Positions 9,692 through 31,186 of a stretch of 64,000 nucleotides of DNA are shown here, one piece after another. Every line of letters starts with the position of its first letter. Positions within the stretch are counted from its first letter, which is position 1. The translations under genes and the position numbers were made by a program. Source of the DNA: a virus; IMG/VR virus record IMGVR_UViG_3300028831_000097, positions 1 through 64,000 of that record; one strand, 5' to 3'. The notes under the pieces were generated by a model. That model ran no database searches and had not been told where the DNA came from. It was given only the letters and a program-made list of their open reading frames with translations.

Positions 9692-9704
9692 GAAGGAGAC
9701 ACCG

Positions 9705-15230: not shown

Positions 15231-15958
15231 GTGTTTCGTATTCGACAATTCTGAGACAGATCGCGGTGACTGTAAACGCGCTCACTGGCGCACTCCCGGC
15301 CTCGTTGCAGACCTCCTACGCCACCGTCCCGCTCACGTCCGCAAACTTTCAGTCGTCCATTCTCCCTTTTGGCTATCTCAAGGATAAGATGCTTAACGCG
15401 CAGGAGAGTTTGTTTCTTGCGCTTGCCTCGACTGCAACTAATCCCCTACGCAGATTTATCGAGTCGCAAACAGATCCCCTCAGCTACGGCGATCAAGTCA
15501 CCACGAACGCAGACGGCCTCCCTGTCGTGGGTGCATACGGAGCAGTGCGAGACGCGGAAACAGGCCGCGTGCTTACCTTGGAAGAAGTTGAGAACATCCA
15601 ACTGCGCGTGATTAATCCTAATTCGATGTTCAAAGTGAAGGTGTATCAGTACGCTATTGTCGGGGATCGCGTCTATCCAACCGTTGACGAGGTGATCGTC
15701 GATGTCTGTGCGTATGAGCGGCCTGATTCAGATGCGCTCGATCTGGAATCTGACATTCTCCTGCCGGACATCCTCGGTCCGGCAATGGTTCAGGGAGCGA
15801 TCTCTGAGTGTTATCGTGATGACGAGTATCTGGAGCAGTCAGGACAGGCGCGTGGATTCTTCAATCAGTGGATTCAGGCACTGCAATCAGGTATGGCCCA
15901 GATCCAGCCGCAGACGAATCCGACGCCGGATGCGCAGACGAAGTACGAGGCAGCTTAG
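15224..15958 (+). CDS. Hypothetical virion-module protein
   Basis: GTG start overlapping the upstream stop; GGAGG upstream. Confidence 0.55.
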   Translation: MVSVSYSTILRQIAVTVNALTGALPASLQTSYATVPLTSANFQSSILPFGYLKDKMLNAQESLFLALASTATNPLRRFIESQTDPLSYGDQVTTNADGLPVVGAYGAVRDAETGRVLTLEEVENIQLRVINPNSMFKVKVYQYAIVGDRVYPTVDEVIVDVCAYERPDSDALDLESDILLPDILGPAMVQGAISECYRDDEYLEQSGQARGFFNQWIQALQSGMAQIQPQTNPTPDAQTKYEAA

Positions 15959-15960
15959 AT

Positions 15961-15974
15961 GTTTCACGAGAAAC
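15961..15974. promoter_or_regulatory. Near-copy (13/14) of the GTTTCACGTGAAAC palindrome
   Basis: GTTTCACGAGAAAC lies in the 53-bp intergenic gap upstream of 16012..16575. Confidence 0.4.
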
Positions 15975-16011
15975 CTTAAATCTTGAGTTTGCACCTTAGC
16001 TTAATTAAGCA

Positions 16012-16575
16012 ATGACTTATACCGAACTGATTACCCGCATCATCTTCGAAGCCCAGCGTGGCGGTGAGAAGGCGGAGCTTGCGAATCTCAACACGCAATC
16101 TGTCGCCGAGTCGATCATGCCGAGCGTATTGCAGGAAGTGACGCAGAAGTATGCGAGTGGGGATTCAAGCAAGCAGTCGCTACTCAGGCAAACGCACGCA
16201 ATCACGCTTACAAACGGCGTCGGTACAATTCCCGATGAAGTAATGACGACCTTTGTCTGGGGGTCTTCGGTCTATATCGATGACGAACCAACGATTGGCC
16301 CACTAATGACCTACACTCCTTGGATCTCCTTTATCAATCCTGCTGACGATCGTCTCGGCTACTACTCCATCCGCGGCACGGACGAATTCTACTGGGCCGA
16401 TCCGGGCGAGAATTATCCAGATCTAACCCGCACCGGCGACGTGTCGCTGACTATTGCCACTGTGCTGACGGTCCCAGATGATCCCGATACTGACACAGAC
16501 TGGCCCGCGGAAGCCGAGAGTGACGTTATAGATCGCGCCGCTGAATACCTCAGAGGGGCGAAGATTGCTGCCTGA
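16012..16575 (+). CDS. Hypothetical virion-module protein
   Basis: 187-aa ORF with no obvious SD sequence. Confidence 0.5.
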   Translation: MTYTELITRIIFEAQRGGEKAELANLNTQSVAESIMPSVLQEVTQKYASGDSSKQSLLRQTHAITLTNGVGTIPDEVMTTFVWGSSVYIDDEPTIGPLMTYTPWISFINPADDRLGYYSIRGTDEFYWADPGENYPDLTRTGDVSLTIATVLTVPDDPDTDTDWPAEAESDVIDRAAEYLRGAKIAA

Positions 16576-18320
16576 TGGGAAAAACTCTAACACCTCGCGT
16601 GATTCGTTCTGGTCCCTATTTCCCCACGCAGCCGCGCACGGGAGATGAAGATAATCGGATATTTCGCAAAAAGGGCTTAATTACCCGCGGACGCGATGGC
16701 CTACTCTATGAAGAATGTCTTCCCGGTCTGGGCGATGTTTCCCCGGATACTCCCGAAACTTTCGATCAAGTCGCACTCACGGGCACGCTCGAACTCACAG
16801 CAGACTCCACGACTATTACCGGGACAGGGACGCAATTCGTCACCGAATGCGGACTGGGCCAGCGTATTGTGGTCATCAATCCCGGTGTGGCGAGCTGGCT
16901 GATCCAGCCACAGCGAATTGTCTCTGATACTGAAATGATTGTATGGGAAGCGCCCGACACGACGATCTCAGGACTAACCGGCTGGCAGATCCAGAAGATT
17001 CAGGCGATTGGCGATAATCAACGCGCAACTTTCCTGCGCGGTAGTCTGGTCAAATCCGACAAGGGCAATTACTTCTCGGCTGGAACTGGTGAACTGCGCA
17101 TCAATGGCGTAGATCTTCCCGGCGCGTCTCTCACGATGACCCTCCAGCCCCAGTTGAGCCTGCTTGATCCCACAGCAGGAACTTACACTAACTTCACTCT
17201 CGGTATGGACATGCCGACCGGGGTGAGCGCAGCAGGAGTTGCAGGCGGCACGAAAGGAATGCAGGCGGGCACGTATTCAGTCGTAGCACAGCCCGCACGC
17301 AAGGAGACAGGAGGATACAATCTCGCCTCGCTCCCGGCCTCGGTAACGATCACTGCCGGACAGAAAGTGCGCGTCACGCTCCCGACGATGGATACTGCGA
17401 ACGGGCAGAACGCATGGCGCATTTCGGTTACCCCTTTTCTTGCCTCATTGGGCACGACGAAGGCAAATCTCCTCGGGCCGTGGTTCTTCTATCAACCCGC
17501 AACGCAAACACTCCCGAACATTACCTGTACGGATAGCGACGTATCCCCGTCGGGAGGGACGTTTGATATCGAATGGCTGGATGCAGAGGTGATCTTCAAC
17601 GACAAGGTAGACTTCACCACGCCCGACGATCCCCCCGTCGAAGCTGACTACGTCGTCTCATTGAATTCAAACCTCGTCTGGTGTAGTTGTCAGGGACGGG
17701 GATTTACAACGCATCCTGAAGCTACCGCACCGGGGCCATTTATCGTGCCCGCGAAGCCGACAAATCCCGAAGCAGCCCCACTAACCCTCGCGTTCTCATC
17801 CTCTCCTCCCGAGACGATTCTGGGCGCATTTGAGGCACAGGGACGAATCTACTTACCCACTACTAATCACTTACAGATTGCTCAAGCCACTCCTGACGAT
17901 GTAACCCCAATTCTTATTCGCCCCTATTGGACAGATGGGTTCGCACACGAGAACCAACTCATCTTCCTCGACGGAGTACTGTACGGATTCACGCTTGGTG
18001 GCCCAACGCGATCCAGCGAGAATGACGACGAGATGCAACGTAACTGGGCGGCTCCAGTGTTTGAGATCACGCGCAACTGGAATGCGGCTCAGGTACTGGT
18101 AGGGTACGATCCAACTGAGGACGTGATTTTATTCTTTCACATTGCAGACTCACTTAACGAAGCCGGATTCTGGACCACGCGTGTGCTGGGATATTCAGTA
18201 GCGCAGCAGATGTGGAATTACGATGACGTGGTTAGCAGCGATGAGCGAGACATGATTCTGGGTGGAGTGGCGACAGTGGGAGATCATTTGGAGGTGACGG
18301 TGGGAGGCCGCGACAGTTGA
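16575..18320 (+). CDS. Hypothetical large virion (tail-associated?) protein
   Basis: TGATG overlap; 581 aa. Confidence 0.6.
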   Translation: MGKTLTPRVIRSGPYFPTQPRTGDEDNRIFRKKGLITRGRDGLLYEECLPGLGDVSPDTPETFDQVALTGTLELTADSTTITGTGTQFVTECGLGQRIVVINPGVASWLIQPQRIVSDTEMIVWEAPDTTISGLTGWQIQKIQAIGDNQRATFLRGSLVKSDKGNYFSAGTGELRINGVDLPGASLTMTLQPQLSLLDPTAGTYTNFTLGMDMPTGVSAAGVAGGTKGMQAGTYSVVAQPARKETGGYNLASLPASVTITAGQKVRVTLPTMDTANGQNAWRISVTPFLASLGTTKANLLGPWFFYQPATQTLPNITCTDSDVSPSGGTFDIEWLDAEVIFNDKVDFTTPDDPPVEADYVVSLNSNLVWCSCQGRGFTTHPEATAPGPFIVPAKPTNPEAAPLTLAFSSSPPETILGAFEAQGRIYLPTTNHLQIAQATPDDVTPILIRPYWTDGFAHENQLIFLDGVLYGFTLGGPTRSSENDDEMQRNWAAPVFEITRNWNAAQVLVGYDPTEDVILFFHIADSLNEAGFWTTRVLGYSVAQQMWNYDDVVSSDERDMILGGVATVGDHLEVTVGGRDS

Positions 18321-20830
18321 GAGAGTTCGACGCTGACTTTCGAGAGTACGAGAACGATCTGCTTAGTGCGGAGTTCGACGACGTGTCGCCTGATTTCGAC
18401 GATGGCTCAATCCTGCAGGAAGTCAACTCAGGCCGGGACGGCTCAGGCGGCGTCACTTTCACCCCCGCTACGACTGTAAATGGCGGCAACTATCCGCTCT
18501 GGATCGGCAAGCAACTCACCGCGCAATCGACTCGCATCGTGCAACTGTACGTTGAGCAACTCAGCGCACAGGGCACACTCGGAGGCCGTCTCCTCACTCT
18601 CACCGATGCTCCTGAAGACGTGTTTGGTGCAACCGTACAAGTCGCCATCAACATCATGGACGACAATACGCTGCAGGCCACGAGAGCGAGCGTGGCAAAT
18701 TCAGGCATCATCCTGCGCGGCGTAGATCAGGGCGGCGATGCGCAAATGACATTACTGGGTACGTCATCGGGCACGCTCGATGGAACCGACTATCTTGAGA
18801 TCGTCGTAGTCCATCATCCAACGACAGGCTCCATTACTGTTTATCAGAATAACGTGCTGTTTTGGACCTTGAATAACGTCAACACCGCAGTGAGTGGTCA
18901 GAATCAATCCACTACCTTTCTCCTTGGCGGCTACGCGGTGACGGGCGATGGAGATGACGTGCTGCATCACGAGGACTTGAACGCCACGCTCAGCGATCTC
19001 ATGGTCATTAACGGGGAGACTAATCCAGACGATCTCAACGACCCGACTCAGCGCATCGGCGATCACAAACCCTTGCTCAGCGTTCCTGAAGGAGTGGGAT
19101 TCTATTCGCAACTCACCGCTGATCCAGCGGGGCCAAACTGGTCCAATGTCGAAGAAATTCCCCCTGATAACGCAAGTGAGATCTATGCTCCGACTACCGA
19201 CTTGCGCGATACCTACGCAATGAACGACGTGGCGGGGACAGGTGCAAATCAAGTCTATCTTACCCATCGCGCCTACGTGCGCGCGGACACACCAGCGGAA
19301 TGTGGCGTGAGCGATGTACCTGCGAACTTTGAAGCTTTCGTCTACATGGAGCAAACTGAGGCAGGAAGTTGCCTGACGGGCGTGCACGATACTTCAAGTT
19401 GTCACTTCACTGATTTCGTGGCGAGACGCGCACAGTCCACTTGCACGATTGGCTCGAACACTGAATCTGTAAGATTCAAAATCAACCTCGTCAATCAGGA
19501 CGGCATGTGGGTGTTTCTTACTCCGTTAAACGCTCCTCCGCGAGCGTTGAACGCCAGTGGCCCAAGTCGTTACTCGTCTGCAGTATTCAATGGGAATAAT
19601 CGTAATGTCGAGGTAACTCCGGCACAGGTGCGCTATTCACTTCCATACTATCAGCCGTGGCTGGGATATGCTGTTGACACGCAGGATAATCTTGATTCAA
19701 CCAGTGATTTCGTTGAGTTCCGCGTGCTGAATATCGGAATTGGAATCGATGTCGTGCTCATCGACAACGCAGATGCAAATTTATTCAATCCCTACACCAG
19801 TCCACTGACGGGATTCCACTTCAGAGAAGACGTGATTGGTTCGCCTTACTTCTGGATTGGCAACTCATTCGCCTACAACGGCGAGACTATCTACTCCTAC
19901 AGTGAGACCGATAACTTCAAGATGACGCGCAACGGTACTGATGTACAGATACGCCAGAATGCGACATTACTTGAGACGATCCCCGTCACCTATCCAACGC
20001 ATACGAACGTTGCGGTATTCGCGGGTCGTTGGGGCTGGGACGCGGCGGGAATCCCACCCGCTTACTCGCTCCGTCCCGGTATCAAGCAATGTTTCGTGCA
20101 AATTGGCGGGAGTGATTGCGTGATCGGTAACTACACGCAACTCACTTGTCTCGTACCGGGAACGTTTACAGGGGCAAGTGCAGCTCCGAGTGAGACGTCT
20201 CAGTGGGGTGTGGAGTTCGATCCCGGTGATGGAACAGTAGGAGACGCGACAGTGTTCGATTCGGGTGGTCCAAATTCACCCAATACTCCAGTATTCGGCT
20301 ACGACGAAAATACGCAACTGGAATTCTCATTAAGTGGTGGGAACGTCATTCTTACCGTCACCGATTGGGTGAATTACGCGGACAATATGACGACTGTGGT
20401 AGGGAATGTTGCTACGTGGATCTACACACGACCCTTTGCGGATACGGATGATTTCACGCTGCAAGCCCCGGCAAGTGGGTACAGCATTGGCGTGCCGACT
20501 TTTCCATTTCCTGCTTTAGAGTACGCCTTCGTCAACGCGGAGCCCAACGCTCCCTTGCGACTGGGAGTGATCTGCTCCGGTGACAGCGACTACGCATTAC
20601 CTGATCACGCAGGCGTGAAGGAAGTCGAATTCACTTTTCTCGCCACGGAAAATCCATCGCAATACGCAGGCGTAATGCGGCAGGATAGCGTGGATCGTGT
20701 CGGGACGGTGAGTGAAGTATCCGCAAGTGAATTCAGATTCAATCAATCGTTTCAAAGTTCCACACCAGCGGACACGCCGGTGACGCTAACTGACGCGAAT
20801 GCAGCCGAACATGGACCGGAAGCTGTATAA
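18317..20830 (+). CDS. Hypothetical large virion (tail-associated?) protein
   Basis: TTGA overlap with GGGAGG upstream; 837 aa. Confidence 0.6.
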   Translation: MREFDADFREYENDLLSAEFDDVSPDFDDGSILQEVNSGRDGSGGVTFTPATTVNGGNYPLWIGKQLTAQSTRIVQLYVEQLSAQGTLGGRLLTLTDAPEDVFGATVQVAINIMDDNTLQATRASVANSGIILRGVDQGGDAQMTLLGTSSGTLDGTDYLEIVVVHHPTTGSITVYQNNVLFWTLNNVNTAVSGQNQSTTFLLGGYAVTGDGDDVLHHEDLNATLSDLMVINGETNPDDLNDPTQRIGDHKPLLSVPEGVGFYSQLTADPAGPNWSNVEEIPPDNASEIYAPTTDLRDTYAMNDVAGTGANQVYLTHRAYVRADTPAECGVSDVPANFEAFVYMEQTEAGSCLTGVHDTSSCHFTDFVARRAQSTCTIGSNTESVRFKINLVNQDGMWVFLTPLNAPPRALNASGPSRYSSAVFNGNNRNVEVTPAQVRYSLPYYQPWLGYAVDTQDNLDSTSDFVEFRVLNIGIGIDVVLIDNADANLFNPYTSPLTGFHFREDVIGSPYFWIGNSFAYNGETIYSYSETDNFKMTRNGTDVQIRQNATLLETIPVTYPTHTNVAVFAGRWGWDAAGIPPAYSLRPGIKQCFVQIGGSDCVIGNYTQLTCLVPGTFTGASAAPSETSQWGVEFDPGDGTVGDATVFDSGGPNSPNTPVFGYDENTQLEFSLSGGNVILTVTDWVNYADNMTTVVGNVATWIYTRPFADTDDFTLQAPASGYSIGVPTFPFPALEYAFVNAEPNAPLRLGVICSGDSDYALPDHAGVKEVEFTFLATENPSQYAGVMRQDSVDRVGTVSEVSASEFRFNQSFQSSTPADTPVTLTDANAAEHGPEAV

Positions 20831-21301
20831 ATGACCCTGCACGTCGAACAATTCACGATGACCGTTTGGGCACCGGAAGGAGACGTGCCGCCGCCGGTGA
20901 CTCCTCCCGTTACGCGAACCATGAGATTTGCGGCAGGGACAACAGGGAACAGGTGGCGACTTGCGCCTTCTGTGGTAGACAGCGGCAATGAATTGCGGTC
21001 TAAGACAGTGAAAGCTACTCACGCAACAGGTAAGTTCACGAATGCTTTCCTGCAAGTCTACACATGGGACGTTACTCAGGATATTAACGTGACTGATTTG
21101 GAGAATGGCACTGGCTCGATAACAGGAAATATCGACCTTCCTGACACTACGCAAGTGCAACAGACCGTTCGCTACCAAGTAAACTGCCCCAATGCTGATC
21201 TTTCAAATCTTTGTATTGAAGGAGAGTGGGATGGTATAGGCATTCCCGACAGAATTGATGAATTAGTATTGGAAATCGCAGTTCAAGGAGCGAGACGCTG
21301 A
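20831..21301 (+). CDS. Hypothetical virion-module protein
   Basis: ATG abuts the upstream TAA. Confidence 0.55.
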   Translation: MTLHVEQFTMTVWAPEGDVPPPVTPPVTRTMRFAAGTTGNRWRLAPSVVDSGNELRSKTVKATHATGKFTNAFLQVYTWDVTQDINVTDLENGTGSITGNIDLPDTTQVQQTVRYQVNCPNADLSNLCIEGEWDGIGIPDRIDELVLEIAVQGARR

Positions 21302-21897
21302 TGGCTGACGACGAACTTGGAAATCCAGATCTTAACCCCTCTCAATTGTATTACAATTACGCAGTCCCGCTCCCGCCTGATAGCATCTCCAGCACCTTCA
21401 CTGGCGATGTCAACCTATTTGTCACGACAATCAATGGAGCCAGTGGTCCCAATGTCACCATTGCTACTTCGCTCAGCGGGCTCTCGTTCAACACTGCAGG
21501 CTCAACGATTACGCTTAGCGGGACGCTGGGGGAGACATCTGGAGGCACGGGACAGTCAACTTACGCACAGGGGGATCTACTCTTTGCCTCTGCCGCGAAC
21601 ACGCTGAGCAAGCTGGCCAAGAGCGCCGCCGCGACTCGCTACCTTTCCAATACCGGAACCTCGAATAACCCGGCATGGGCACAGATCGATTTAACCAACG
21701 GCGTTACTGGAGTGCTTCCGGTAGTAAGTGGCGGAGCAGCTAAGAGTAACGTCACTAATGCCGCGCCAACAGTAAACGACGATAGCGGGGACGGATACGA
21801 GATCCACTCTCTATGGACCGATACGACTGGGCCAACGACATACATCTGCCAGAGCGCAGCCTTAGGAGCAGCGGTATGGACACAAATCGCGCCCTGA
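21301..21897 (+). CDS. Tail-fibre-like protein (short)
   Basis: Carries cassette GDLLFASAANTLSKLAKSAAATRYLSNTGTSNNPAWAQ, which is shared with the 1379-aa fibre. Confidence 0.6.
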   Translation: MADDELGNPDLNPSQLYYNYAVPLPPDSISSTFTGDVNLFVTTINGASGPNVTIATSLSGLSFNTAGSTITLSGTLGETSGGTGQSTYAQGDLLFASAANTLSKLAKSAAATRYLSNTGTSNNPAWAQIDLTNGVTGVLPVVSGGAAKSNVTNAAPTVNDDSGDGYEIHSLWTDTTGPTTYICQSAALGAAVWTQIAP

Positions 21898-22388
21898 TTC
21901 GGCGATTGACGGTTGCTGACGCGGATTTGCTCCGACTCGCTTACGAGTGGGATCGCGGACGCGCGCAATGGTACGTGGAAATGGATCGCGTGTTCAATTC
22001 AGGCTCGGTGGACGATCTACTTGCTAAGTTGTCAGACGTAAACCACGCCTTCATCGGAGTATTCGATCCCGCGCTCACTGCAATTGTCATCATCCAGCAC
22101 CACGAGCAGGGCCAGTTCGAGGGGCATCTGATGGCTCGGCGAGGCGCGAACCTACAACTCATCAAGTCTGTAATCTCGTATCTGCTCTACGATCTACTCA
22201 ACCTTGGACTTAGCGAAGCCTTTGTCTGGGTCGCAGAAAAGCATCGCAGTGTGCGCAAGTTATGTGCTAACATCCAGTTCCAGCCGGACGGGCTTGTCAT
22301 GTACAAGGGCGCGTATCGCCGCCGCGTCATCAAATGGATCAGGTATTCAATTCAACGGGAACAAATTTTAATGGCCCAAGCAGCATAG
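21876..22388 (+). CDS. GNAT-family acetyltransferase-like protein
   Basis: ATG at 21876 inside ORF 21813..22388. Pattern H..ARRGANLQLIKSV...LGL..AFVWV...N..RKLC..IQF is typical of a GNAT core. Confidence 0.5.
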   Translation: MDTNRALIRRLTVADADLLRLAYEWDRGRAQWYVEMDRVFNSGSVDDLLAKLSDVNHAFIGVFDPALTAIVIIQHHEQGQFEGHLMARRGANLQLIKSVISYLLYDLLNLGLSEAFVWVAEKHRSVRKLCANIQFQPDGLVMYKGAYRRRVIKWIRYSIQREQILMAQAA

Positions 22389-22397
22389 ATTCCCCCG

Positions 22398-22844
22398 ATG
22401 CCGAAGCAGACCTCGAAAACAAATACCTCCTCCACTGCGAGTTATGGGCAGATCCAGCCCCAGTCGAATCAGTACATAGACAAGTTTGCCAACTGGACGC
22501 CGGAGTTAGATCCGACAATTCCCTTTCGTGCTGCTGCATCGAGAAATCGACTCAATTCATCGTTTCTGAATCCGAATGGAGGCTACGCCACGCCGCAGAT
22601 GCTGGAAGCGCGACGTAACGCGGCGAATCGTGGTATAGACGAGCAACAGGGGATGGAGATGCGCGCCGGACAGTACGATGCGAATAACCAACGCATGGGC
22701 CAACTGGGGAGCTTAGCCGCGCTCATGGCCCCGCGTATTGTGCAGACCGGCTCAACAGGTACGTCGAACACAGCGGCGGGACAGAATTTGTTCGGCGAAA
22801 TCCTCGATTTAGGGATGGGAGCCGCGTCGATGGCACTCGGATGA
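22398..22844 (+). CDS. Hypothetical protein (Gln/Asn/Ser-rich)
   Basis: 148-aa ORF in operon register. Confidence 0.5.
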   Translation: MPKQTSKTNTSSTASYGQIQPQSNQYIDKFANWTPELDPTIPFRAAASRNRLNSSFLNPNGGYATPQMLEARRNAANRGIDEQQGMEMRAGQYDANNQRMGQLGSLAALMAPRIVQTGSTGTSNTAAGQNLFGEILDLGMGAASMALG

Positions 22845-23458
22845 GAGAGATATTCGAACACGCAACTAACCCTGCGCTCTGGCTCTCATTTGGCAAAGAT
22901 TCACTACTACTCCTGCAGTTCGCGCTCGAAGCAGGATTCATCGGCCCTTGTTACTTCTTCGGAGATGAATTGAGCGACTTCGCACGACAGGTAATCAGCG
23001 ACCACTCGCTCACGGTCTACTCATGGCCGAGCGCGGATCGTTATCTCATTCCCGACGGAGAGGGATTGACCCAAATCGATGAATACGTCATCGGGAAAGC
23101 TCGCGTACCACTAATCTCGTCCGTAGTCGCAGGTGAGAGATGTGCGCATGGGGAGTATCGTAGATTCACGCGCAGGTTTGATTACAAGCATGACATCACT
23201 CTCACGGGATATAAGAAGTCAGATGTGAGTGGGGTAATCGGAATGACCTTTCCGCGTGAGTTAGACATCGGAGTGACGCGTATTATCAACCCGCTCTACG
23301 ATCTCACTGACGAGGAAGTGATTGCACAACTTGGATTTACCCCGCCTGACAACAGCCCAGTTGAGTATTGCGATAAATGTTTAGCGACCATTCAATCCAG
23401 CGACTGGGACAGGGAAGCAGCACTGGCGGGTTTCCGTCAGCGATTTGGATTTCACTAA
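22841..23458 (+). CDS. PP-loop / PAPS-reductase-like protein
   Basis: ATGA overlap. N-terminal SFGKDS motif resembles the SGGxDS PP-loop. Confidence 0.5.
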   Translation: MREIFEHATNPALWLSFGKDSLLLLQFALEAGFIGPCYFFGDELSDFARQVISDHSLTVYSWPSADRYLIPDGEGLTQIDEYVIGKARVPLISSVVAGERCAHGEYRRFTRRFDYKHDITLTGYKKSDVSGVIGMTFPRELDIGVTRIINPLYDLTDEEVIAQLGFTPPDNSPVEYCDKCLATIQSSDWDREAALAGFRQRFGFH

Positions 23459-23470
23459 AGGAGACTCGCG

Positions 23471-24061
23471 ATGGCAATTGACAACATCACCCGACAGGTC
23501 ATTACAAAGAATGTTAGTGCGGCCTACACGGCCCAGTTGGACGACACACAGATCGTCTGCGATGCCACGAGCGCCGGATTCACAGTGACATTGTACAAGG
23601 TGAACGATAACGCTGTGCATCGACTCATCGTTGCGATCGATCCCGACGACTCATCCGGCAATACGGTTACGATCACAGACGGCACGTTCTCGACCACGCT
23701 CAGTGCCGCAGGTGCGGCGGTAACGCTGGAGACGCAATATGATGGCTCGTGGATGATTGCGGGACAGTATCCCGTGACGAGTTCGGCGACTGCGACGAGT
23801 AGTGCGACATCCGCCGGACTTGCGGCTTCAGTAGCCCAATCAGCGGGCGTCTCCGCAGCGGCGGGTGGTACTGGCGCATCATCGTCCACTTCAACTGCCA
23901 CGTCACAAAACCTCTCGCAGAGTACGACGATCTCCACTGTTGGTTCGGTAGCGGGTAGTGCGACGTTGAGTGGGGTATCCGCAACTGCGAGCGTAGCGAC
24001 GAGTCAGAACGCATCGCAGTCATTGAACGTGAGCACGGCACAGAGTACGGCGGCGAGCTAA
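23471..24061 (+). CDS. Beta-rich domain protein with a roughly 95-aa Ser/Thr/Ala-rich C-terminal tail
   Basis: AGGAG RBS. The N-terminal domain is paralogous to 10998..11333. The tail reads SSATATSSATSAG...STSTATSQNLSQSTTIST... Confidence 0.6.
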   Translation: MAIDNITRQVITKNVSAAYTAQLDDTQIVCDATSAGFTVTLYKVNDNAVHRLIVAIDPDDSSGNTVTITDGTFSTTLSAAGAAVTLETQYDGSWMIAGQYPVTSSATATSSATSAGLAASVAQSAGVSAAAGGTGASSSTSTATSQNLSQSTTISTVGSVAGSATLSGVSATASVATSQNASQSLNVSTAQSTAAS

Positions 24062-25119
24062 TGACGACTAAGAAGAAAGTCGCAAACAAGATTCGCAAAC
24101 GGGCAATGCCAACGATGGTTGCCGCCAGTGCGCAACGGCCTCTTAAGATTTGTCACTGGTCGGCCCACAATCTCTCAGGAATGCATCGGGTCGCTGAAAC
24201 CTTGATGCTGGCCGAGCGCAAGCTTGGCCTAGACAGTTATTTGATAAACGTTCAGGAAGTCCCAACTGCTGAGTGGGATCAATACGCAGATGCGGACATT
24301 CACGTTCCGCATACGCACTTCCCGAATGAGATGCGAAAGCGGTTAACTCGTCCGTTGAAAATGGTCTTTGTTTCACATGGGACACCTGAGTACATAATCA
24401 ATTCAGCTTTCAGTGAAAGTAAAATGGGATACGGACACGGGGATAGTCTGCAGCTCTGGATGTACTGGCTAAAAACAGCAGATGCTATCTGCACTTTTTG
24501 GCCGCGTCACCAAGCGATTATGCAGTCGATGGCCGATAAAAACACAAAGGTTCATTTGCTTCCATTAGGATTGGATTTACCCTTTTGGCGAGCGGCAAAA
24601 AGCAGGGGCAAATTCGCTGGAAATCCGAGCGTGATGACAAGTGAGAATAGCCACTCAATCAAGTGGGCCTACGATCTTTTTGTGTGCTGGAGCTGGATCT
24701 ATAAAGAGATACCGGACGCGTCCCTTCATGCCACTTATGTCCCCACGGACCAGCACCGGATCTGGATGCCGCTACTGAACCGCAACGGCTGTTCATACGG
24801 CGCGTTTATTTCGCCCTTAACGTGGCCTCACGATGAATGGAGACACGTCCTGAATAGTATAGATTTCTACTGGAACGGGGTTCGATATGGCGATTTCAAC
24901 CGAGTAGGAATGGAAGCAAATCTATGCGGAGCAAAGGTTATTTCCTATCGAGGTAATCCCTACTCGCATTACTGGATCACCGAAGGCGACCAACGTGAGA
25001 TGGCTCGTGAATTTATTGAGATTTTTAAGGGAGATCGAGAACCTCGGACTCCTGATCGAATCCCTTCCGACATTGAGATGGCAACTGCGATGCGGGCAAT
25101 TTACCAGTCAATTCTTTGA
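24061..25119 (+). CDS. Glycosyltransferase-like protein (GT-B/GT4-like)
   Basis: TAATG overlap with the upstream gene. C-terminal pattern NRVGMEANLCGAKVIS resembles the GT4 nucleotide-sugar-binding region. Confidence 0.5.
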   Translation: MTTKKKVANKIRKRAMPTMVAASAQRPLKICHWSAHNLSGMHRVAETLMLAERKLGLDSYLINVQEVPTAEWDQYADADIHVPHTHFPNEMRKRLTRPLKMVFVSHGTPEYIINSAFSESKMGYGHGDSLQLWMYWLKTADAICTFWPRHQAIMQSMADKNTKVHLLPLGLDLPFWRAAKSRGKFAGNPSVMTSENSHSIKWAYDLFVCWSWIYKEIPDASLHATYVPTDQHRIWMPLLNRNGCSYGAFISPLTWPHDEWRHVLNSIDFYWNGVRYGDFNRVGMEANLCGAKVISYRGNPYSHYWITEGDQREMAREFIEIFKGDREPRTPDRIPSDIEMATAMRAIYQSIL

Positions 25120-25623
25120 ACGACGGTTCGACGGAGTGGTCAATGCTTTTTCTAGGGTCCAATATTTCAATCGGTAATACAGACCAAATTCCGAAATTCC
25201 AATTTGCTGCGCCCAGTCGGTGAAGCACAGAGTTTTGCCATTGAATGTAATGAGATGATTTCGACTGTAGTTTCTATTCTGCTTGTCCCATGTGGTCCAC
25301 TCGCAGTTCTCTGGAGTGTAGTGCCCATTGTTATCAAGGCGATTAATCGAATACAAACGACTCGGTTCTGGTTTCTCGCCCATGTCGGCAAGAAAGTTTT
25401 CGAACGAATTCAACCACCGATCACAGGTTTTTATTCCACGTCCCCCATATCGGGCGTAGTCCGTATCCCGAGAATTGGTAGTACGTCGAATCATAGCTTC
25501 CCATGCCCTGTAGGTAGGGGTCCCAGAATAGCCATGTGTAGTATTGAAGTGTTTTCCTTGAGTCAAGACGTGAACCTCCGATTCAGGTTTGCGATTGATA
25601 GGACGCTGAGACTGCGGAAACAA
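25108..25623 (-). CDS. Free-standing endonuclease-like protein (family commonly annotated HNH/homing endonuclease); copy 1 of 3
   Basis: Antisense to the late operon. Motifs TPTYRAWEAMIRR, YGGRGIKTCDRW, FLADMGEKP, NRLDNNGHYTPENCEW. The start is uncertain: TTG at 25623, or TTG at 25566 which has a GGAGG upstream. Confidence 0.55.
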   Translation of the reverse strand: MFPQSQRPINRKPESEVHVLTQGKHFNTTHGYSGTPTYRAWEAMIRRTTNSRDTDYARYGGRGIKTCDRWLNSFENFLADMGEKPEPSRLYSINRLDNNGHYTPENCEWTTWDKQNRNYSRNHLITFNGKTLCFTDWAQQIGISEFGLYYRLKYWTLEKALTTPSNRRSKN

Positions 25624-25646
25624 TCCCAGCGTCCGCTAATTATAAC

Positions 25647-26171
25647 ATGGGGCACAGTCTAATGAATCAATTCTCTAATGGTGCCTTTAACTTTGTGGAC
25701 CAATCCGCCATGATCGGCGAAGGGACCGAGATCTGGCACTACGCGGTAGTGCTGGCCGATGTCGTAATCGGCACCAACTGCAGTATCGGCTCACATGCAG
25801 AGATTGGACGGGGAACGCACGTTGGCAATAATACCCGCGTTGGCAAAGGTGTTTTCCTGCCACCGGATTCCATCGTTGGCGATAATGTTTTTATTTCGCC
25901 GGGAGTTTTCTGTGCAGATGATAAGAGGCCAAGATGCGGGAACATGAACTACGATGCGCGTCCTCCGATCATCGGAAACTTCGCCGTCATCGGTATGTGT
26001 TCCGTGCTATTGCCGGGGGTGCGAATTGGCACCAACGCCTTTATAGGCGCGGGCAGTATTGTAACGAAAAATGTTCCTGATGGCGGAGTCGTATACGGGG
26101 ACGCGGCAAGGCTGAGAGAAATGAGCCTGACGCATCTCTCTCGTGAGTATGGCTGGATTGGAGGCGCGTAG
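25647..26171 (+). CDS. Hexapeptide-repeat (left-handed beta-helix) acyl/acetyltransferase
   Basis: Repeated [LIV]-G-x4 hexapeptides, for example IGEGTEI, IGTNCSI, IGRGTHV, VGKGVFL, IGTNAFIGAGSIV. Confidence 0.7.
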   Translation: MGHSLMNQFSNGAFNFVDQSAMIGEGTEIWHYAVVLADVVIGTNCSIGSHAEIGRGTHVGNNTRVGKGVFLPPDSIVGDNVFISPGVFCADDKRPRCGNMNYDARPPIIGNFAVIGMCSVLLPGVRIGTNAFIGAGSIVTKNVPDGGVVYGDAARLREMSLTHLSREYGWIGGA

Positions 26172-26519
26172 ATGTCAGAGCAGAGGTTTTTTTACAATAC
26201 GGTCCAGTTGACCGCCACGGCCACGGCCCGATCACTTTACGATCTGGTCACTGACGTAAATCTCAGCTATGCGTTACCAAAGAACCTTATAGGCCCCTGC
26301 GTCTCGCTGAATTTCATCTCTAACGTCGCTATCAAAGTAGGCGGCACGGCCGCAGAGTTGGATGATACGCATGGCGGTGGTCTAGCGGCGGGCACCCCAT
26401 TTCAGGATTCCGCCACGGGAGCGGCGGGAAATTCAATCCCGCTGGCGCAAATCTTTTTGTACTCGCCGACAGCAAGCGGCACCGCGACTGTAACAATCTA
26501 TCTCAGATTCATCGGATAA
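26172..26519 (+). CDS. Hypothetical protein
   Basis: ATG abuts the upstream TAG. Confidence 0.5.
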   Translation: MSEQRFFYNTVQLTATATARSLYDLVTDVNLSYALPKNLIGPCVSLNFISNVAIKVGGTAAELDDTHGGGLAAGTPFQDSATGAAGNSIPLAQIFLYSPTASGTATVTIYLRFIG

Positions 26520-26533: not shown

Positions 26534-27037
26534 ATGCCCGGACCGCAACCTTCTGCAGTGTCTGTTTTTTCTCAGACAGTCACGCTAACGAACGCCCAGA
26601 TTAAGGCGCTTCCTGTCACGCCGGTTGTGATCGTTCCCGCCACGGAAGTCATCGACTACGTAGGAATACCTACGCAGCTGCAGATTCCTATCTTTGCGAT
26701 GGTGCGGTCCGTGATCCCGGTAGCATACGACAACCTCAATGTCAGTTTAACGACCAATATTAACCTCGGAAGCGATAACAGCTTTACTTTTTCCGGACCG
26801 CTTGCTGGAGGTGCCCTATATCAGTACGATGGGTCTGTAGCCTTCTACGCGTCTCCTGCGCAAACTGGCGCGTCGTTTGGTAGTCCTGTAACCGCTGCAT
26901 TCAATAACATTAAGGACAGCCTTTACGATAACGCGATTGTACTGGCTGTTAACAATCAAGGAGATGGCGTGTTCACACAAGGAGATGACGAAAACTCCCT
27001 AATTGTAACGGTACTCTATACCACTATCAGCGTTTAA
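26534..27037 (+). CDS. Hypothetical protein
   Basis: AGGAGA RBS; 167 aa. Confidence 0.55.
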   Translation: MPGPQPSAVSVFSQTVTLTNAQIKALPVTPVVIVPATEVIDYVGIPTQLQIPIFAMVRSVIPVAYDNLNVSLTTNINLGSDNSFTFSGPLAGGALYQYDGSVAFYASPAQTGASFGSPVTAAFNNIKDSLYDNAIVLAVNNQGDGVFTQGDDENSLIVTVLYTTISV

Positions 27038-27046: not shown

Positions 27047-30000
27047 ATGTCAGAGTTAGTAATTACAGCCGCAGGGTTTGTGATCCAGCCTCTCGTGGAC
27101 CAACGCAACGGGCCGTGCGAGATTCGCTGGTGGTACTCGCGCTCGTTCCTTACCTCGGATAATGTTCAAATCAATTACGGTACGGGTACGACTGGATTCT
27201 GGATTACTACTCCCTGCTCGATTGCGGATGGCTTGATTACCGTCGATCAGGATACCGAGCTATGGTGTACAGACGACGCTCAGGACCCGGCACCACAATC
27301 GATCTTTCTCAGCGCGGGAATTTATTCGTCGCGCGGGAAGTTGATCCAGCAACTACAAATCTCCAGCAAGGCCCAATGGGTAGTGCCGTCGTCACTTGCG
27401 CCGACGACAACATGGGCAGACTTCTCCGCGTACAATCTCGCGGTCTTTCTCGCCAATCCGCCTTCGATCTTCTATACCGCGCCGCAGATAGATGCGCTAC
27501 TGGATCGGGCGTTCGATCAACATCCCGCGTTGGACACAGACCTCGGGACAGTCTTACTTACAATTCCAGCTGACATTCCTGCGTCACCTGTAGTCTGGGG
27601 CGCGAATGATCCCCTCGTGAGAGACGCAGTTGCAATTCAAGGTGTAGATGTCAGTGATACTGTTCCGCTCGACTCGCAGATACTCGTCTATAATCAAGCC
27701 AACAATCAGTACGAACCAGCGAATCAAGCGGCAGGTGCGGGGAACGTTACCTCGAATGAGGTGTCGTCAGTCGATGGAAACGTGACGCTCGCCTCAGGCA
27801 CGGGCGGGAAGACGATTAAGTTCGACTCGTCGGCCCACTTCGACGGCAATGGGTTATTGACTGGCGCAACTGTAGACACGCCCGCCACAGGGACGGAGAT
27901 CGCCAACAAGGACTACGTTGATTCAGCGATTGGGGGACTAGGTGCGATTCTGGCCGATGGTTCCATACCCTTCGCGGCGGACGAGTCGATGGGCGGATTC
28001 AAGCTCACGAATGTCGCAGATCCCGAGGATGATACGGACGCGGCTAACAAGGAATTCGTCCTCGCTTCAGTTGCCGCTGCCGTGCAGCAGACGCCGAATA
28101 TCTCCGCTCTTGTCTCAGGCGGAGGCGTCTTCTGGGTTGACGATTACGACTTTCAGGTAGCGGCTGCGACCTACCTGATTCAGGGAGATTTGTTTACCTC
28201 GACCGGGGACACGGTCACGCTCGATCCGGCAGATCCAACGCTGGATCGCATCGACGTGATTGCACTCGACGACACTGGGAGCGTGGTGGTCATCACCGGA
28301 ACTGCCGCGTCTCAGCCCTCTCAGCCTGATGTCGATCCGGGTACGCAGTTGCTCCTTACCTTTGTCCTCGTCACTGCGAATACTACTCAACCTGTCGGAG
28401 TGAGCAATACCGACATTTACCTTGACAACGCAGAATGGACTGCGACTACGAGTGGGTCTGGTTGGAATGTCAACTCAACAACGAATCCGTTCAGCGGGAC
28501 GAAGTGTATCGAAGGAACGAACGTCGCCAACGCAGCTTACGTGCAACTGCAAGCTCTCGCGCCACTGACGTTGGATACCTACGCCATTCTCAGTGTGTTT
28601 ATCTCGCCGAAAGCCGCATGGCCCAAAAAGCGCAGTCTCGTCTTCCAGTGGTTCAGCGCAGGCGTGGCGCTCGGCGTGCCGGTGACGATCAATACCGGAT
28701 TCTTTGGGTTTGACTCGGCGAATGCGACTTACCAGTTGCTCGCAATTCCAATTGCTCAATTTGCTATTCCCGCTGCGACTTCGCTAAACCAGCTACGCAT
28801 CACCGATCAAGGCGGCGCAATTGGGATGTTCGTCGATAACGTCGTATTGCAGGCGAATGGTTCTTCAATTGGCCCACCAATAGCTTCAGGAATCACTCAA
28901 GCGCAGGCGGATGCGAGATACCTGCAGCAGGCGAATAATTTGAGCGACGTAGCGAGCGCCAGTACGGCCCGCACAAACATCGGAGCGCAGGCTGGCCCGC
29001 TAACAGGCGATGTGACCACGAGTGGAGCAGCGGCAACACTGGCCAACACCGCAGTCACACCGGGCAGCTACACGAACACGAACCTGACAGTCGATGCGAA
29101 AGGACGCATCACCGCCGCAGCAAATGGAGCCGCTGGACCGGGATCGAGCATTCCGACAACGGTTCAGGGGGATACGCTCTACGCTTCAGCACCTGATACT
29201 CTCTCCGCGCTGGCGAAGGATACGAATGCGACGAGATATTTGAGCAACACCGGAGCAAGTAACAATCCCGCATGGGCACAGGTTGCGCTCTCGACTGGGA
29301 TCTCAGGATTTGGAACCGGAGTAGCAGCTGCGCTCGCAACAAATGTTGGTTCTGCCGGTGCTCCCGTCGTCAATGGCGGCGCATTGGGAACGCCGTCGTC
29401 GGGAACACTGAGCGCATGTACGGGTCTGCCGGTCTCATCGGGAATCACCGGACTTGGGACTGGGGTTGCCGCGGCACTGGCGGTTAATATCGGTTCGGCG
29501 GGCGCGTTTGTCGCGTTCAATGGAGCACTTGGAACGCCGTCAAGCGGCACGCTTTCAAGTTGCTCGGGCTTGCCAATCTCTACCGGCGTGAGCGGACTGG
29601 GATCAAACGTTGCAACTTTCCTCGCTACACCGTCAAGCGCAAACCTCGCAGCCGCAGTCACAGATGAAACGGGAAGTGGATTGCTGGTCTTCGCCACCTC
29701 GCCGGTGTTCAGTACTGACATTACGCTTCCAAATAGCTCATCACCCACCACGGGATCAGTGGCTAAAGTCGCCTTCGACACCGATGCATGGGCTGCCAGT
29801 CGCGGTGCGGTGCAAGTGCATGACGGTACGGCTAACACATATCTCGTCGGCGTGTTGGCCTCTGATACTCCAAGCAACGGGCAAGTGCCAACTTGGAATA
29901 CAGGGGGAACGGTGACATGGGAGACGCCCAGCAGTGGCGGTACGTTTAATTCCACGACGGGTGCGACGCCCTACCTGTCAGCTACGAACGTGTTCAGCGA

Positions 30001-31186
30001 CTCGCCTCTATTCAGGGAAGACGCCGATACGCTTGCCCAGCGACATGGTACTACTAATCAAACTTTTCTCGTTTACCAATCCTTCACCAGCAGCACAAAC
30101 TACTCCCGCCTGCGTCTTTACGGTGACGGAACATCGATAGGCTTACTCAGTGAGAAAGGATCAGGTGGAGGTAGTTTCCAGCACGTCATCCTCGGCAATA
30201 CGAGCAATGGCTACTGGCGTATTCGCGGCGACAACGGCCAACTGGAACCGAGCGGTAATAACAATATCAATCTCGCCACGAGCGGGTCAGGTAGTATCAC
30301 CAGCGGCGGCAACGTGCAGGCAGCGCAAACCTCGGCTTTTCTCTTCTCAAGTGAAGCGCGGCTCAAGGCGGGTGGTAATGGATACTCAATCAGCATAATC
30401 GATTCAGGCGGCACAAACGCCGGAACGATTGTAATGGGATTTCGGGATTACACCGCATCTTCCGGCTCGACTAATAATCCTGATTTCGGTACTGGGGCAT
30501 TTGGAGTACGAGTTTCTCCCAACGCAGCCGGATCGACCCTCACTGGCTGTCGGGATGTTACTGTTAGTGGAGAACTCCATCGTCTTTACAATGTAAGCAC
30601 CGCATTGCTCACCCTCGCCAACCAGAACACCGGCAGCACAGCGGGAAATCGCTGGTTGTCGAACACCGGGATGGACATTAATCTCGCCGCCGATGAGGTT
30701 GCGCTTTACCAGAATGATGGTTCGACTGCGCGACAGAGGGTGGGGAAGTTCCAGACCTTTGACACGGCAGTGGTGACTACTCAATTCGACAAAACTTCGG
30801 ATGTCACACTCGCTAACATAACGATGGACCGGACGTTTAACGTCTCGGCGTCGCGCACTTATGAATTTGAGGCGATTCTCTACACGTCGAGCAATATCGC
30901 AGGCGGAGTGCAGTTTGCTATTGCCGGGACTGCAACTGCGACTGCGATCGTCTATGAAGCAGTAGTCTTCAGTGCTGCCACACTGGCCGCGGAAACACGC
31001 GCGACGGCATTAGGTACAGCAGTCGGCGGCATTACGGCAGTCACGGCGGCCTACGTTCGCATCACCGGCATGATCACAGTGAATGCGGCAGGGACGTTGA
31101 CTGTTCAGTTCGCCCAGAACGCAAGTAACGGGACCGCATCATCCGTGCTGGTGGGTTCAATTTTTCGGGTAAATAAAATCAGATGA
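27047..31186 (+). CDS. Large tail fibre protein (1379 aa)
   Basis: Size, Gly/Ser/Thr/Ala-rich composition, internal 48-aa tandem repeats, and a fibre cassette shared with 21301..21897. Confidence 0.75.
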   Translation: MSELVITAAGFVIQPLVDQRNGPCEIRWWYSRSFLTSDNVQINYGTGTTGFWITTPCSIADGLITVDQDTELWCTDDAQDPAPQSIFLSAGIYSSRGKLIQQLQISSKAQWVVPSSLAPTTTWADFSAYNLAVFLANPPSIFYTAPQIDALLDRAFDQHPALDTDLGTVLLTIPADIPASPVVWGANDPLVRDAVAIQGVDVSDTVPLDSQILVYNQANNQYEPANQAAGAGNVTSNEVSSVDGNVTLASGTGGKTIKFDSSAHFDGNGLLTGATVDTPATGTEIANKDYVDSAIGGLGAILADGSIPFAADESMGGFKLTNVADPEDDTDAANKEFVLASVAAAVQQTPNISALVSGGGVFWVDDYDFQVAAATYLIQGDLFTSTGDTVTLDPADPTLDRIDVIALDDTGSVVVITGTAASQPSQPDVDPGTQLLLTFVLVTANTTQPVGVSNTDIYLDNAEWTATTSGSGWNVNSTTNPFSGTKCIEGTNVANAAYVQLQALAPLTLDTYAILSVFISPKAAWPKKRSLVFQWFSAGVALGVPVTINTGFFGFDSANATYQLLAIPIAQFAIPAATSLNQLRITDQGGAIGMFVDNVVLQANGSSIGPPIASGITQAQADARYLQQANNLSDVASASTARTNIGAQAGPLTGDVTTSGAAATLANTAVTPGSYTNTNLTVDAKGRITAAANGAAGPGSSIPTTVQGDTLYASAPDTLSALAKDTNATRYLSNTGASNNPAWAQVALSTGISGFGTGVAAALATNVGSAGAPVVNGGALGTPSSGTLSACTGLPVSSGITGLGTGVAAALAVNIGSAGAFVAFNGALGTPSSGTLSSCSGLPISTGVSGLGSNVATFLATPSSANLAAAVTDETGSGLLVFATSPVFSTDITLPNSSSPTTGSVAKVAFDTDAWAASRGAVQVHDGTANTYLVGVLASDTPSNGQVPTWNTGGTVTWETPSSGGTFNSTTGATPYLSATNVFSDSPLFREDADTLAQRHGTTNQTFLVYQSFTSSTNYSRLRLYGDGTSIGLLSEKGSGGGSFQHVILGNTSNGYWRIRGDNGQLEPSGNNNINLATSGSGSITSGGNVQAAQTSAFLFSSEARLKAGGNGYSISIIDSGGTNAGTIVMGFRDYTASSGSTNNPDFGTGAFGVRVSPNAAGSTLTGCRDVTVSGELHRLYNVSTALLTLANQNTGSTAGNRWLSNTGMDINLAADEVALYQNDGSTARQRVGKFQTFDTAVVTTQFDKTSDVTLANITMDRTFNVSASRTYEFEAILYTSSNIAGGVQFAIAGTATATAIVYEAVVFSAATLAAETRATALGTAVGGITAVTAAYVRITGMITVNAAGTLTVQFAQNASNGTASSVLVGSIFRVNKIR
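29297..29640 (+). repeat. In-frame tandem repeat, 144-nt period, about 2.4 copies, inside the fibre gene
   Basis: Units start at 29297, 29441 and 29585. Consensus is G(I/V)(S/T)G(F/L)G(T/S)(G/N)VA..LA..(V/I)GSAGA.V..NGALGTPSSGTLS.C.GLP(V/I)S. Confidence 0.8.

Follow-up and report, generated by a model that had tools for sequence, protein, structure and literature searches.

A serine-repeat virion protein, a GT4-like glycosyltransferase and a hexapeptide acetyltransferase: a candidate self-glycosylation cassette in the structural modules of uncultured tailed phages

To our knowledge, certain mycobacteriophages are still the only phages whose particles have been demonstrated to be glycosylated, and the authors of that work reportedly saw few signs of such modification among phages at large. 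As the work is summarised in a later article, phage-encoded glycosyltransferases (GTs) glycosylate the C-termini of capsid and tail-tube proteins in Che8, Corndog and Myrna (Freeman et al., 2023, cited in PMC12619734). In this article, we discuss a set of genes in a 64,000-nucleotide stretch of virus DNA (positions 1 to 64,000 of IMG/VR record IMGVR_UViG_3300028831_000097, hereafter the window) that may serve a comparable end with different parts: a serine-repeat virion protein (23471..24061), a GT-B, GT4-like GT (24061..25119) and a left-handed beta-helix (LbH), or hexapeptide, acetyltransferase (25647..26171), all on the + strand and within the tail-fibre module. Like the mycobacteriophage enzymes, this GT is predicted to O-glycosylate the C-terminal part of one of its phage's own structural proteins in the host cytoplasm; whereas, as far as that summary goes, the mycobacteriophage acceptors are capsid and tail-tube subunits, the acceptor predicted here is a dedicated serine-repeat tail on an accessory protein encoded beside the GT, and an LbH acetyltransferase is an obligatory partner, unlike the mycobacteriophage type. 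The mycobacteriophage GTs have no detectable sequence relation to this GT (tblastn, 50,697 phage records), and glycosylation is here a prediction. Phage self-glycosylation is known; what is new is the architecture, namely a predicted modular serine-repeat acceptor, a GT4-like GT and an LbH enzyme that are portable between capsid-decoration and fibre slots, and we found no description of this triad in the literature.

Giant viruses also glycosylate themselves, as seen in the fibril glycans of Mimivirus, which involve viral GTs and an N-acetyltransferase, and in Vp54 of the chlorovirus PBCV-1. The likeness to the system predicted here is that a viral GT and a sugar acetyltransferase serve surface fibrils or capsid independently of the host glycosylation machinery; however, those viruses are eukaryotic and have multi-gene sugar-nucleotide pathways, whereas here there are two enzymes with no sugar-nucleotide synthesis genes found, and the structural matches of this GT to giant-virus GTs reflect generic GT-B similarity only. 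In the bacterial cytoplasm, soluble GT-B enzymes glycosylate repeat proteins, with GtfA/GtfB (GtfA being a GT4 enzyme) acting on serine-rich repeat proteins (SRRPs) and BAHT enzymes (TibC/Aah) on AIDA-I/TibA. FlmG, in turn, glycosylates flagellins (PMC7591256). In these bacterial systems a soluble GT-B-type enzyme is encoded beside the Ser/Thr-rich repetitive protein that is its substrate and acts on it ahead of export or assembly, which is the arrangement predicted here, but their substrates are cellular adhesins and flagellins, no sequence-level homology to those families was detected, and the repeat here has a helical 18-residue serine periodicity whereas SRRPs have dipeptide-like repeats. 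Seroconversion cassettes (gtrABC, oac), finally, lie near the integrase and attP, encode the membrane proteins GtrA/B/C and the acyltransferase-3 protein Oac, and are expressed from prophages as morons. They share with the present locus a phage-borne combination of sugar transferase and acetyltransferase chemistry, but the enzymes here are soluble and lie in late structural operons, and neither an integrase nor a Gtr partner was found among the scanned open reading frames (ORFs) of the window.

The reading that we favour, with belief and doubt about evenly balanced, is that the GT and the LbH enzyme act in the cytoplasm to O-glycosylate and acetylate a serine-rich fibre of the virion. The likely target of the pair is the product of 23471..24061, which an earlier note on this DNA, made without database searches, had left unmentioned. 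This protein (196 residues, not an enzyme) is encoded directly upstream of the GT, and the two genes overlap in a TAATG junction (24059-24063). It has two parts: the first ~100 residues (23471..23776) form a compact domain, the putative anchor, which matches the N-terminus of a homologue on contig L090, and the last ~95 residues (23777..24061) form a periodic Ser/Thr/Ala-rich tail, the proposed glycan acceptor, in which serine and threonine together make up a fraction of ~0.41.

What carries the argument is that this tail and the two enzymes come and go together. Contig L090 has neither GT nor LbH gene, and its homologue of 23471..24061 keeps the N-terminal domain (36% identity, E = 5.5e-15) in a fibre-like protein of 286 residues, encoded at the same position, whose C-terminus is of a beta-type fibre without serine repeats. 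The second case comes from a lineage represented by contig L047, in which the major capsid protein is 44% identical to that of Sinorhizobium phage phi3LM21. In that cultured phage, which has no GT or LbH gene, a 141-residue 'virion structural protein' lies between the protease and the major capsid protein; it aligns with residues 1-129 of the L047 serine-repeat protein at 52% identity (E = 4e-39) and stops where the serine tail begins. In two unrelated lineages, then, serine tail, GT and LbH are jointly present or jointly absent while the anchor is kept, and this co-gain and co-loss is the strongest evidence that tail and enzymes work together.

The wider survey points the same way. IMG/VR was scanned with an alignment of the GT, which gave 80 loci with a GT match, and their ORFs were called and then compared by BLAST, clustering and hidden Markov model searches. 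An LbH gene is matched in 71 of these loci; among the nine others, the contig ends within 0.5 kb in five and the gene is truly absent in four, so the LbH gene is found in 71 of the 75 loci with room for it. It lies on the same strand and directly downstream of the GT, save in two loci with a 1-1.4-kb insertion, and the HNH insertion that separates the two genes in the window is absent in most relatives. On the other side of the GT, most loci encode a protein of 150-390 residues with a serine-rich repeat ending (for example ...ADSKAVSNSVIASTNLSTGDSK... or ...SETSRVDS...). With a score that multiplies serine content by helical serine moment in a 72-residue window, 46 of 71 GT-upstream neighbours (65%) passed, as against 16 of 1127 genes (1.4%) elsewhere in the same loci. 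The serine autocorrelation peaks at lags 4, 14, 18 and 22, the serine moment at 100 degrees per residue is 0.59 versus 0.27 in shuffles, and there is almost no proline, all of which indicates a serine stripe along a probable alpha-helical fibre; on a helical wheel, the serine moment is strong, the hydrophobic moment is weak, and the angle between the serine and hydrophobic faces is close to that of the shuffled control. The serine-repeat proteins have no relative in PDB sequence searches.

More than half of the high-scoring proteins (25 of 46) also end in a short C-terminal motif with a histidine among the last four residues (...SK[VIL]AS[YH]H[AP], ...VTSSAH, ...THSG), spread from L013 to L079 and found for instance in L045:8926-9990, L047:9310-9987 and L068:9227-9991. 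A 93-residue upstream protein in L039 has a related ending, ...VLESKVASGGW, and almost no repeats, and the clade of the window is without the motif, its protein ending in ...NVSTAQSTAAS. The motif could be a docking or recognition peptide.

The surroundings of the triad change from one phage lineage to the next. In the window it lies within the fibre module. L068-type contigs encode, one after another, TerL (phrog_38, 6.6e-80), a putative portal, a 101-residue protein, a 320-residue protein, the triad and the major head protein (phrog_1328, 1.8e-36), where the portal call accompanies a single weak match, to phrog_332 'head-tail adaptor' (3.7e-05); in L047-type contigs the triad lies between the head maturation protease and the major capsid protein, and in L002 there are SU10-type capsid and adaptor genes upstream. 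The N-terminal domains of the serine-repeat proteins differ by lineage as well, and a few are capsid cement domains (PF09956, 1.1e-15; PF22758, weak). The triad moves as a unit within structural modules, and the earlier note's treatment of the fibre module as the defining context has to be given up, since elsewhere the triad lies in the head module beside the major capsid protein.

In the scheme that we infer, as regards acceptor, donor sugar, sequence of reactions and virion incorporation alike, the segment 23471..26171 minus the HNH gene would be a self-contained cassette (module A) of an anchored virion protein with a serine tail, a GT and an LbH enzyme. Late in infection, the soluble GT would move a sugar from a host nucleotide-sugar onto serines and threonines of the tail in the cytoplasm, and the LbH enzyme would acetylate the sugar either at the stage of the amino-sugar donor, ahead of transfer, or once it is attached. 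The lineage-specific N-terminal domain would anchor the serine-repeat protein to the particle, and the modified protein would join the virion through this domain to give a glycosylated fibre. The tail would be graftable onto different virion anchor domains, such that the glycosylated protein may sit on the tail fibres in the phage of the window and on the capsid, in a decoration-protein slot, in other lineages.

The fold assignments on which this scheme draws were reached along different routes. Among the four enzymes that the earlier note had recognised in the region (a GNAT-like protein, a PP-loop protein, the GT and the LbH protein), only the last was recognised directly by family scans; the folds of the other three were reached through homologue bridging and through AlphaFold models with Foldseek, because direct Pfam, PHROG and NCBIfam scans of them were empty. 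All four fold calls stand, LbH by Pfam, PP-loop by its homologues and their profile, and GT and GNAT by AlphaFold and Foldseek. The GT itself (352 residues, soluble) matches nothing in Pfam, PHROG, NCBIfam or PDB sequence searches and has at least 628 homologues in metagenomes. Its AlphaFold model, built on 32 homologues (predicted local distance difference test score, pLDDT, 86.1; predicted template modelling score, pTM, 0.83), has the two Rossmann-like domains of a GT-B fold, and its top PDB matches in Foldseek are all GT4 GT-B enzymes (BshA at 7e-11, PimA, MshA and GlgM; template modelling (TM) scores 0.6-0.68). The matches in BFVD are generic viral GT1/GT4 proteins, with generic fold similarity only to Gordonia and Arthrobacter phage GTs. 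Six of the 32 homologues match Pfam Glyco_transf_4 (best 3.7e-06) and five match Glyco_trans_1_4, and the family profile reaches PDB entry 8xsg at E = 0.1, a weak match. Model and homologues support a GT-B, GT4-like glycosyltransferase fold for this protein.

Conservation of the GT bears on whether it is an enzyme at all. It is the most conserved gene of the neighbourhood, with 39-75% identity across loci in which other structural genes no longer match, and 46 columns of its alignment never vary, polar or charged residues (H, D, E, R, K, N) occupying many of these; the second Glu of the EX7E motif, E285, is kept in at least 90% of members. Were the GT and LbH proteins non-catalytic, they might be virion components, for instance sugar-binding tips, with the trimeric LbH protein docked onto a trimeric coiled-coil fibre, or they might be chaperones of the serine-repeat fibre; their location in a structural operon, their strict adjacency to a fibre-like gene without a distal domain of its own, the fact that LbH proteins are trimers, and the C-terminal motif of many serine-repeat proteins, which could be a docking peptide, would all suit such a role. 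We nevertheless regard it as very improbable, given that the pattern of conservation in the GT is enzyme-like, that the LbH protein gives, from end to end, the scores of a genuine acetyltransferase, and that we know of no phage receptor-binding protein with a GT-B fold.

A GT-B fold in a phage can also mean modification of DNA. Both glucosyltransferases of T4, alpha and beta, belong to the GT-B enzymes, and Mom, which modifies DNA, is GNAT-like; by analogy with the glucosylated hydroxymethylcytosine of T-even phages and with other glycosylated phage DNAs the GT might glycosylate modified bases while the LbH or GNAT protein acetylates the adduct; a cyanophage 'DNA alpha-GT' does occur among the remote structural matches of the GT, at rank 37. 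Diverse DNA-glycosylating phage GTs have been described, as cited in a later article (Pyle et al., 2024, cited in PMC12619734). We give this possibility next to no weight, for the genes lie in a late structural operon, outside the replication module, the scanned minus-strand ORFs of at least 250 residues gave no thymidylate-synthase-like hydroxymethylase, and the pairing and co-loss with a serine-repeat virion protein would be left unexplained. Pfam scans of 30 further window proteins for sugar-nucleotide or DNA-hypermodification genes gave just a beta clamp, a PAS domain and two weak matches, one to PD-(D/E)XK and one of coiled-coil type.

The GT has no tblastn match at E <= 1e-5 in the 50,697 cultured-phage records, which should include actinobacteriophages, and among 185,579 species genomes it was found on 6 contigs of metagenome-assembled genomes only; the family is, on these searches, essentially phage-only. 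Three of the six contigs, which carry GT and LbH genes, are binned as Gemmatimonadota (L088, JAQBQB010000021.1, 108.9 kb; L087; L083), and these bins, suggestive only, may be a host hint or reflect a prophage. The hosts of the triad phages are probably not Actinobacteria.

The LbH protein (174 residues) is the most readily classified of the four. It reaches 96.5 bits with Pfam Hexapep (PF00132, E = 3.5e-28), whose gathering score is 27, with tandem hexapeptide repeats, and its best solved relatives align over almost its full length: the WxcM-like protein 4mzu (2.7e-27), the N-acetyltransferase 7s3u (1.2e-25) and QdtC (8.8e-21), followed in the PDB sequence search by 3mqg, a 'lipopolysaccharides biosynthesis acetyltransferase' (4.2e-19), all of which we take to be nucleotide-sugar N-acetyltransferases. 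The nearest NCBIfam model, TIGR03570 (NeuD/PglB/VioB), is reached at 77 bits (1.3e-21), below its cut-off of 160.8, and the protein belongs to no substrate-defining equivalog among QdtC, WlbB, PglD and NeuD, so the resemblance to QdtC and WxcM-like structures is one of family level only. Its homologue matches in the cultured-phage records are generic. These comparisons support a hexapeptide sugar acetyltransferase of the nucleotide-sugar N-acetyltransferase type. The QdtC, 4mzu, 3mqg and PglD/NeuD class gives the best sequence matches (2.7e-27 to 4e-19), yet under the NCBIfam cut-offs, and, unlike the settings of QdtC-type enzymes, no partner aminotransferase, isomerase or dehydratase was found nearby; candidate substrates are a nucleoside diphosphate (NDP)-amino-sugar or a protein-linked sugar.

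Several observations weigh against glycosylation and acetylation of the serine tail. In the GT, Gly277 stands where GT4 enzymes canonically have the first Glu of EX7E, with an invariant Asp278 one position on, and in four loci the GT is without an LbH gene. By the score used, about one third of loci are without a clear serine-repeat gene directly upstream; the serine periodicity fits a fibre built as an alpha-helical coiled coil, where many serines could lie hidden in the core instead of being exposed as acceptors, and Ser/Ala-rich helical repeats are common in fibre shafts generally. The LbH protein, finally, is most like N-acetyltransferases of nucleotide-linked 3-amino sugars, and no aminotransferase or dehydratase that would make such a 3-amino sugar was recognised among the ~40 window proteins scanned.

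The genes are arranged as part of a late structural operon. A co-oriented run of + strand ORFs extends over 21.3-31.2 kb of the window, and the island within it is bordered upstream by a short fibre-like protein (21301..21897, 198 residues; phrog_33012, 7.9e-07) and downstream by a fibre protein of 1379 residues (27047..31186, +). An AGGAG precedes the ATG at 21876 of the GNAT gene, which overlaps the short fibre-like gene by 22 nt; the gene for a 148-residue protein and the PP-loop gene share an ATGA (22841-22844), and the TAG of the LbH gene abuts the ATG of the next gene at 26171/26172. Promoter and terminator consensus sites in 15-34 kb are fewer than in shuffled sequence, base composition in the island is unremarkable, with lower guanine-plus-cytosine (GC) content only in two HNH genes and, slightly, in the GT, which gives no decisive sign of horizontal acquisition, and no transmembrane segments were found in the island proteins. 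The structural surroundings include PHROG tail-fibre N-terminal matches at 16575..18320 and 33526..35040, TerL at 993..3239 (+) and a weak major-head match at 9552..10982. This much agrees with the earlier note, which had placed four enzyme ORFs on the + strand between the 198-residue and 1379-residue fibre genes, coupled to structural genes through ATGA/TAATG overlaps (those at 22841-22844 and 24059-24063), and had set them apart from morons of the integrase type: the ORF list contains the four genes at those places, and there is no integrase among the scanned ORFs, no transmembrane segment and no excess of promoters.

The operon setting is also where the most substantial alternative has to be weighed, namely that the GT and LbH enzymes act at the inner membrane face on intermediates of the lipopolysaccharide (LPS) core, the O-unit or exopolysaccharide (EPS), and so alter the receptor recognised by the neighbouring fibres, the outcome being receptor masking, superinfection exclusion or the shielding of progeny from debris. 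The enzymes would then travel with the fibre gene because receptor specificity and masking must match, and T5 llp and lambdoid cor are examples of receptor-masking genes beside genes for receptor-binding proteins. O-antigen and EPS loci typically draw on GT4 and LbH enzymes, the closest relatives of solved structure for the LbH protein (QdtC, WxcM-like, 3mqg) act in LPS or surface-glycan sugar pathways, and the GT4 enzymes WaaG and PimA use lipid acceptors without having transmembrane segments. A translationally coupled late operon with no promoter of its own for these genes speaks against it, however, since the GT and LbH proteins would appear just minutes ahead of lysis, and a lysogen would have neither; elsewhere, moreover, the triad is found between protease and major capsid protein and not beside receptor-binding proteins, its constant partner has no globular receptor-binding domain and bears a serine tail that comes and goes with the enzymes, and no Gtr-type, flippase or membrane acyltransferase partner was found. 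We consider modification of the host surface unlikely on this balance. The earlier note had left the choice between virion proteins and host glycans undecided for its four enzymes as a group, and here the comparative evidence favours modification of virion proteins for the GT and the LbH enzyme, though not for the GNAT and PP-loop proteins.

Those two proteins have a distribution of their own. Among the 80 GT loci, the GNAT protein is matched in 11, the 148-residue protein in 10 and the PP-loop protein in 8, in the closest relatives only: L001 and L003-L008 have the same gene order as the island of the window, L009, L010 and L082 have GNAT and GT without PP-loop, and ~70 other contigs carry the GT-LbH pair with neither GNAT nor PP-loop. 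Conversely, L089 and L090, which were reached via distant PP-loop homologues and are syntenic with the window through 14472..21301, carry the GNAT, 148-residue and PP-loop genes, a homologue of the N-terminal domain of 23471..24061, the 115-residue protein and a fibre, and neither of them has a GT or LbH gene. GNAT, the 148-residue protein and PP-loop are therefore a backbone module of this lineage, and the GT-LbH pair is a separate and far more widespread unit; the island is a composite of two modules and not one cassette. The single cassette of four chemistries proposed in the earlier note does not survive this independent distribution, and neither, in our opinion, does the improbable notion of one pathway in which LbH and GNAT N-acetylate a sugar, the PP-loop enzyme amidates, thiolates or sulfates it, and the GT transfers it. 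Four co-oriented genes within 4.3 kb, in an order that recurs in L001 and L003-L008, would suit such a pathway, and PP-loop enzymes and GNATs do occur in sugar-modification pathways, but each module persists without the other, GNAT accompanies GT without PP-loop in the three loci named above, and the PP-loop protein matches CysD/CysH-type models only, over the PP-loop only, with no sugar amidotransferase model.

The GNAT protein (21876..22388, 170 residues) belongs to an orphan family, with 218 representatives among 1.84 billion proteins and no match in Pfam, PHROG, NCBIfam or PDB sequence searches. Its AlphaFold2 model (pLDDT 90.3) matches SpeG, PaiA, ArsN and YdaF in the PDB (Foldseek E ~5e-9, TM 0.70-0.76), with 550 PDB matches at E <= 0.001 of which the best 50 are all acetyltransferases, and a few remote members touch Acetyltransf_3/4/1 (Acetyltransf_3/4 in 3 of 58 remote relatives, best 1.1e-04). 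The loop equivalent to the acyl-CoA pyrophosphate signature (Q/R-x-x-G-x-G/A) reads RRGAN, is variable across the family and is atypical; the model as a whole supports a GNAT fold. The gene that follows (22398..22844, +) encodes a polar, Q/N/G-rich protein of 148 residues, not an enzyme, with no family match in Pfam, PHROG or NCBIfam.

The PP-loop protein (22841..23458, 205 residues, PAPS-reductase superfamily) has no match in Pfam or PHROG by itself; among its 34 homologues, PF01507 is matched by 18 of 33 at E <= 0.01 (best 1.3e-07), and the family profile finds CysD in the PDB at E = 0.001, aligned at the CysD PP-loop. The SFGKDS motif pointed out in the earlier note is borne out by 33 homologues, in which S16, G18, D20 and S21 are invariant and F17 and K19 are kept in at least 90%. 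NCBIfam CysD/CysH models align with the first 30-70 residues only, at 12-24 bits against cut-offs of 154-413, and the protein is not a CysH/CysD orthologue because only the PP-loop itself aligns; homologues and profile together support a PP-loop, PAPS-reductase-like fold. C101 and C177xxC180 are near-invariant in the family, with a spacing that resembles the Fe-S sites of APS reductases or of TtuA-type PP-loop enzymes (TtuA being among the weak PDB profile matches), and the family is without an ECGLH-type C-terminal catalytic motif. A role as a WbpG/PseA-type sugar amidotransferase was considered and dropped, as no such NCBIfam model matched.

Together, the GNAT, the PP-loop and the coupled 148-residue protein are a GT-independent set fixed in the tail/fibre region of this lineage. 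As module B, they would work independently of the GT, and our guess is that, through acylation and ATP-dependent adenylation, they modify a virion or fibre protein in some further way. Combining both modules, we hold more tentatively, and with somewhat more doubt than conviction, the broader proposal that the three genes are a portable 'glyco-fibre' cassette across a large group of uncultured tailed phages, with which they would cover capsid or tail in an acetylated glycan of their own. Such a cassette would take virion self-glycosylation beyond the actinobacteriophages for the first time, and its dedicated modular acceptor would likewise be without precedent; the neighbouring GNAT and PP-loop proteins would stand for a second kind of virion-protein modification.

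The remaining genes of the region deserve a brief description. Two minus-strand HNH homing-endonuclease-like genes lie within the + strand late operon (25108-25623 and 31382-31975), with GC contents of 0.46-0.47, below those of their neighbours. The first (25108..25623, 171 residues; phrog_3377 HNH endonuclease, 2.5e-45) splits the GT-LbH pair, overlaps the 3' end of the GT by 12 nt and is regarded as outside the system; it was missed by the earlier note, as were the non-enzyme ORFs 22398..22844 and 23471..24061. The second is placed after the gene of the 1379-residue fibre. Between the LbH gene and this long fibre lie two + strand genes for small backbone proteins, one of 115 residues (26172..26519) with a 68% identical counterpart in the GT-less L090, and one of 167 residues (26534..27037).

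The short (21301..21897) and long (27047..31186) fibre proteins have in common a segment ...LSKLAK...ATRYLSNTG[TA]SNNPAWAQ..., which is 80% identical over 56 residues to a Peptidase_S74-containing fibre (L089:13546-14106), and this likeness suggests a common attachment or exchange module. Further downstream, the maximal ORF of a fibre-like gene (31679-33553, +) overlaps the second HNH gene, and its true start is probably ~32003 (MSKAFSWAFVIIIASFMSVQG...); read from there, its product and that of 33526-35040 (+) have signal-peptide-like hydrophobic starts (KD19 2.2 and 1.85), which is unusual for tail fibres. Right after the structural block, a small PAS-domain protein is encoded at 37187-37627 (+; Pfam PAS, 1.3e-4, just under the cut-off), the only Pfam match among 20 structural-side window proteins; a PAS protein was also called at the equivalent end of the relative L001, and one would not expect a sensor-type domain among the late genes of a phage. 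On the minus strand, 43597-44694 encodes a DNA polymerase III beta sliding clamp, complete in its three domains (E = 7e-17 to 7e-10), and the scanned minus-strand ORFs gave no recognisable DNA polymerase. In the 50,697 phage records the TerL of the window has no tblastn match, and the island by blastn and the GT, TerL and serine-repeat proteins by tblastn find essentially nothing; by these comparisons the lineage is very remote from cultured phages.

If the favoured reading of a GT and an LbH enzyme that modify a serine-rich virion protein is true, self-glycosylated virions would be common in environmental phages, which would bear on how the particles adsorb, how stable they are, how they adhere to polysaccharide matrices and how they escape recognition. 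The GT and its serine tail would also be a compact enzyme-acceptor pair that, if it works, would be usable for glycan display on phage particles. The GNAT and PP-loop pair, for its part, marks a further uncharacterised enzymatic function inside the tail module.

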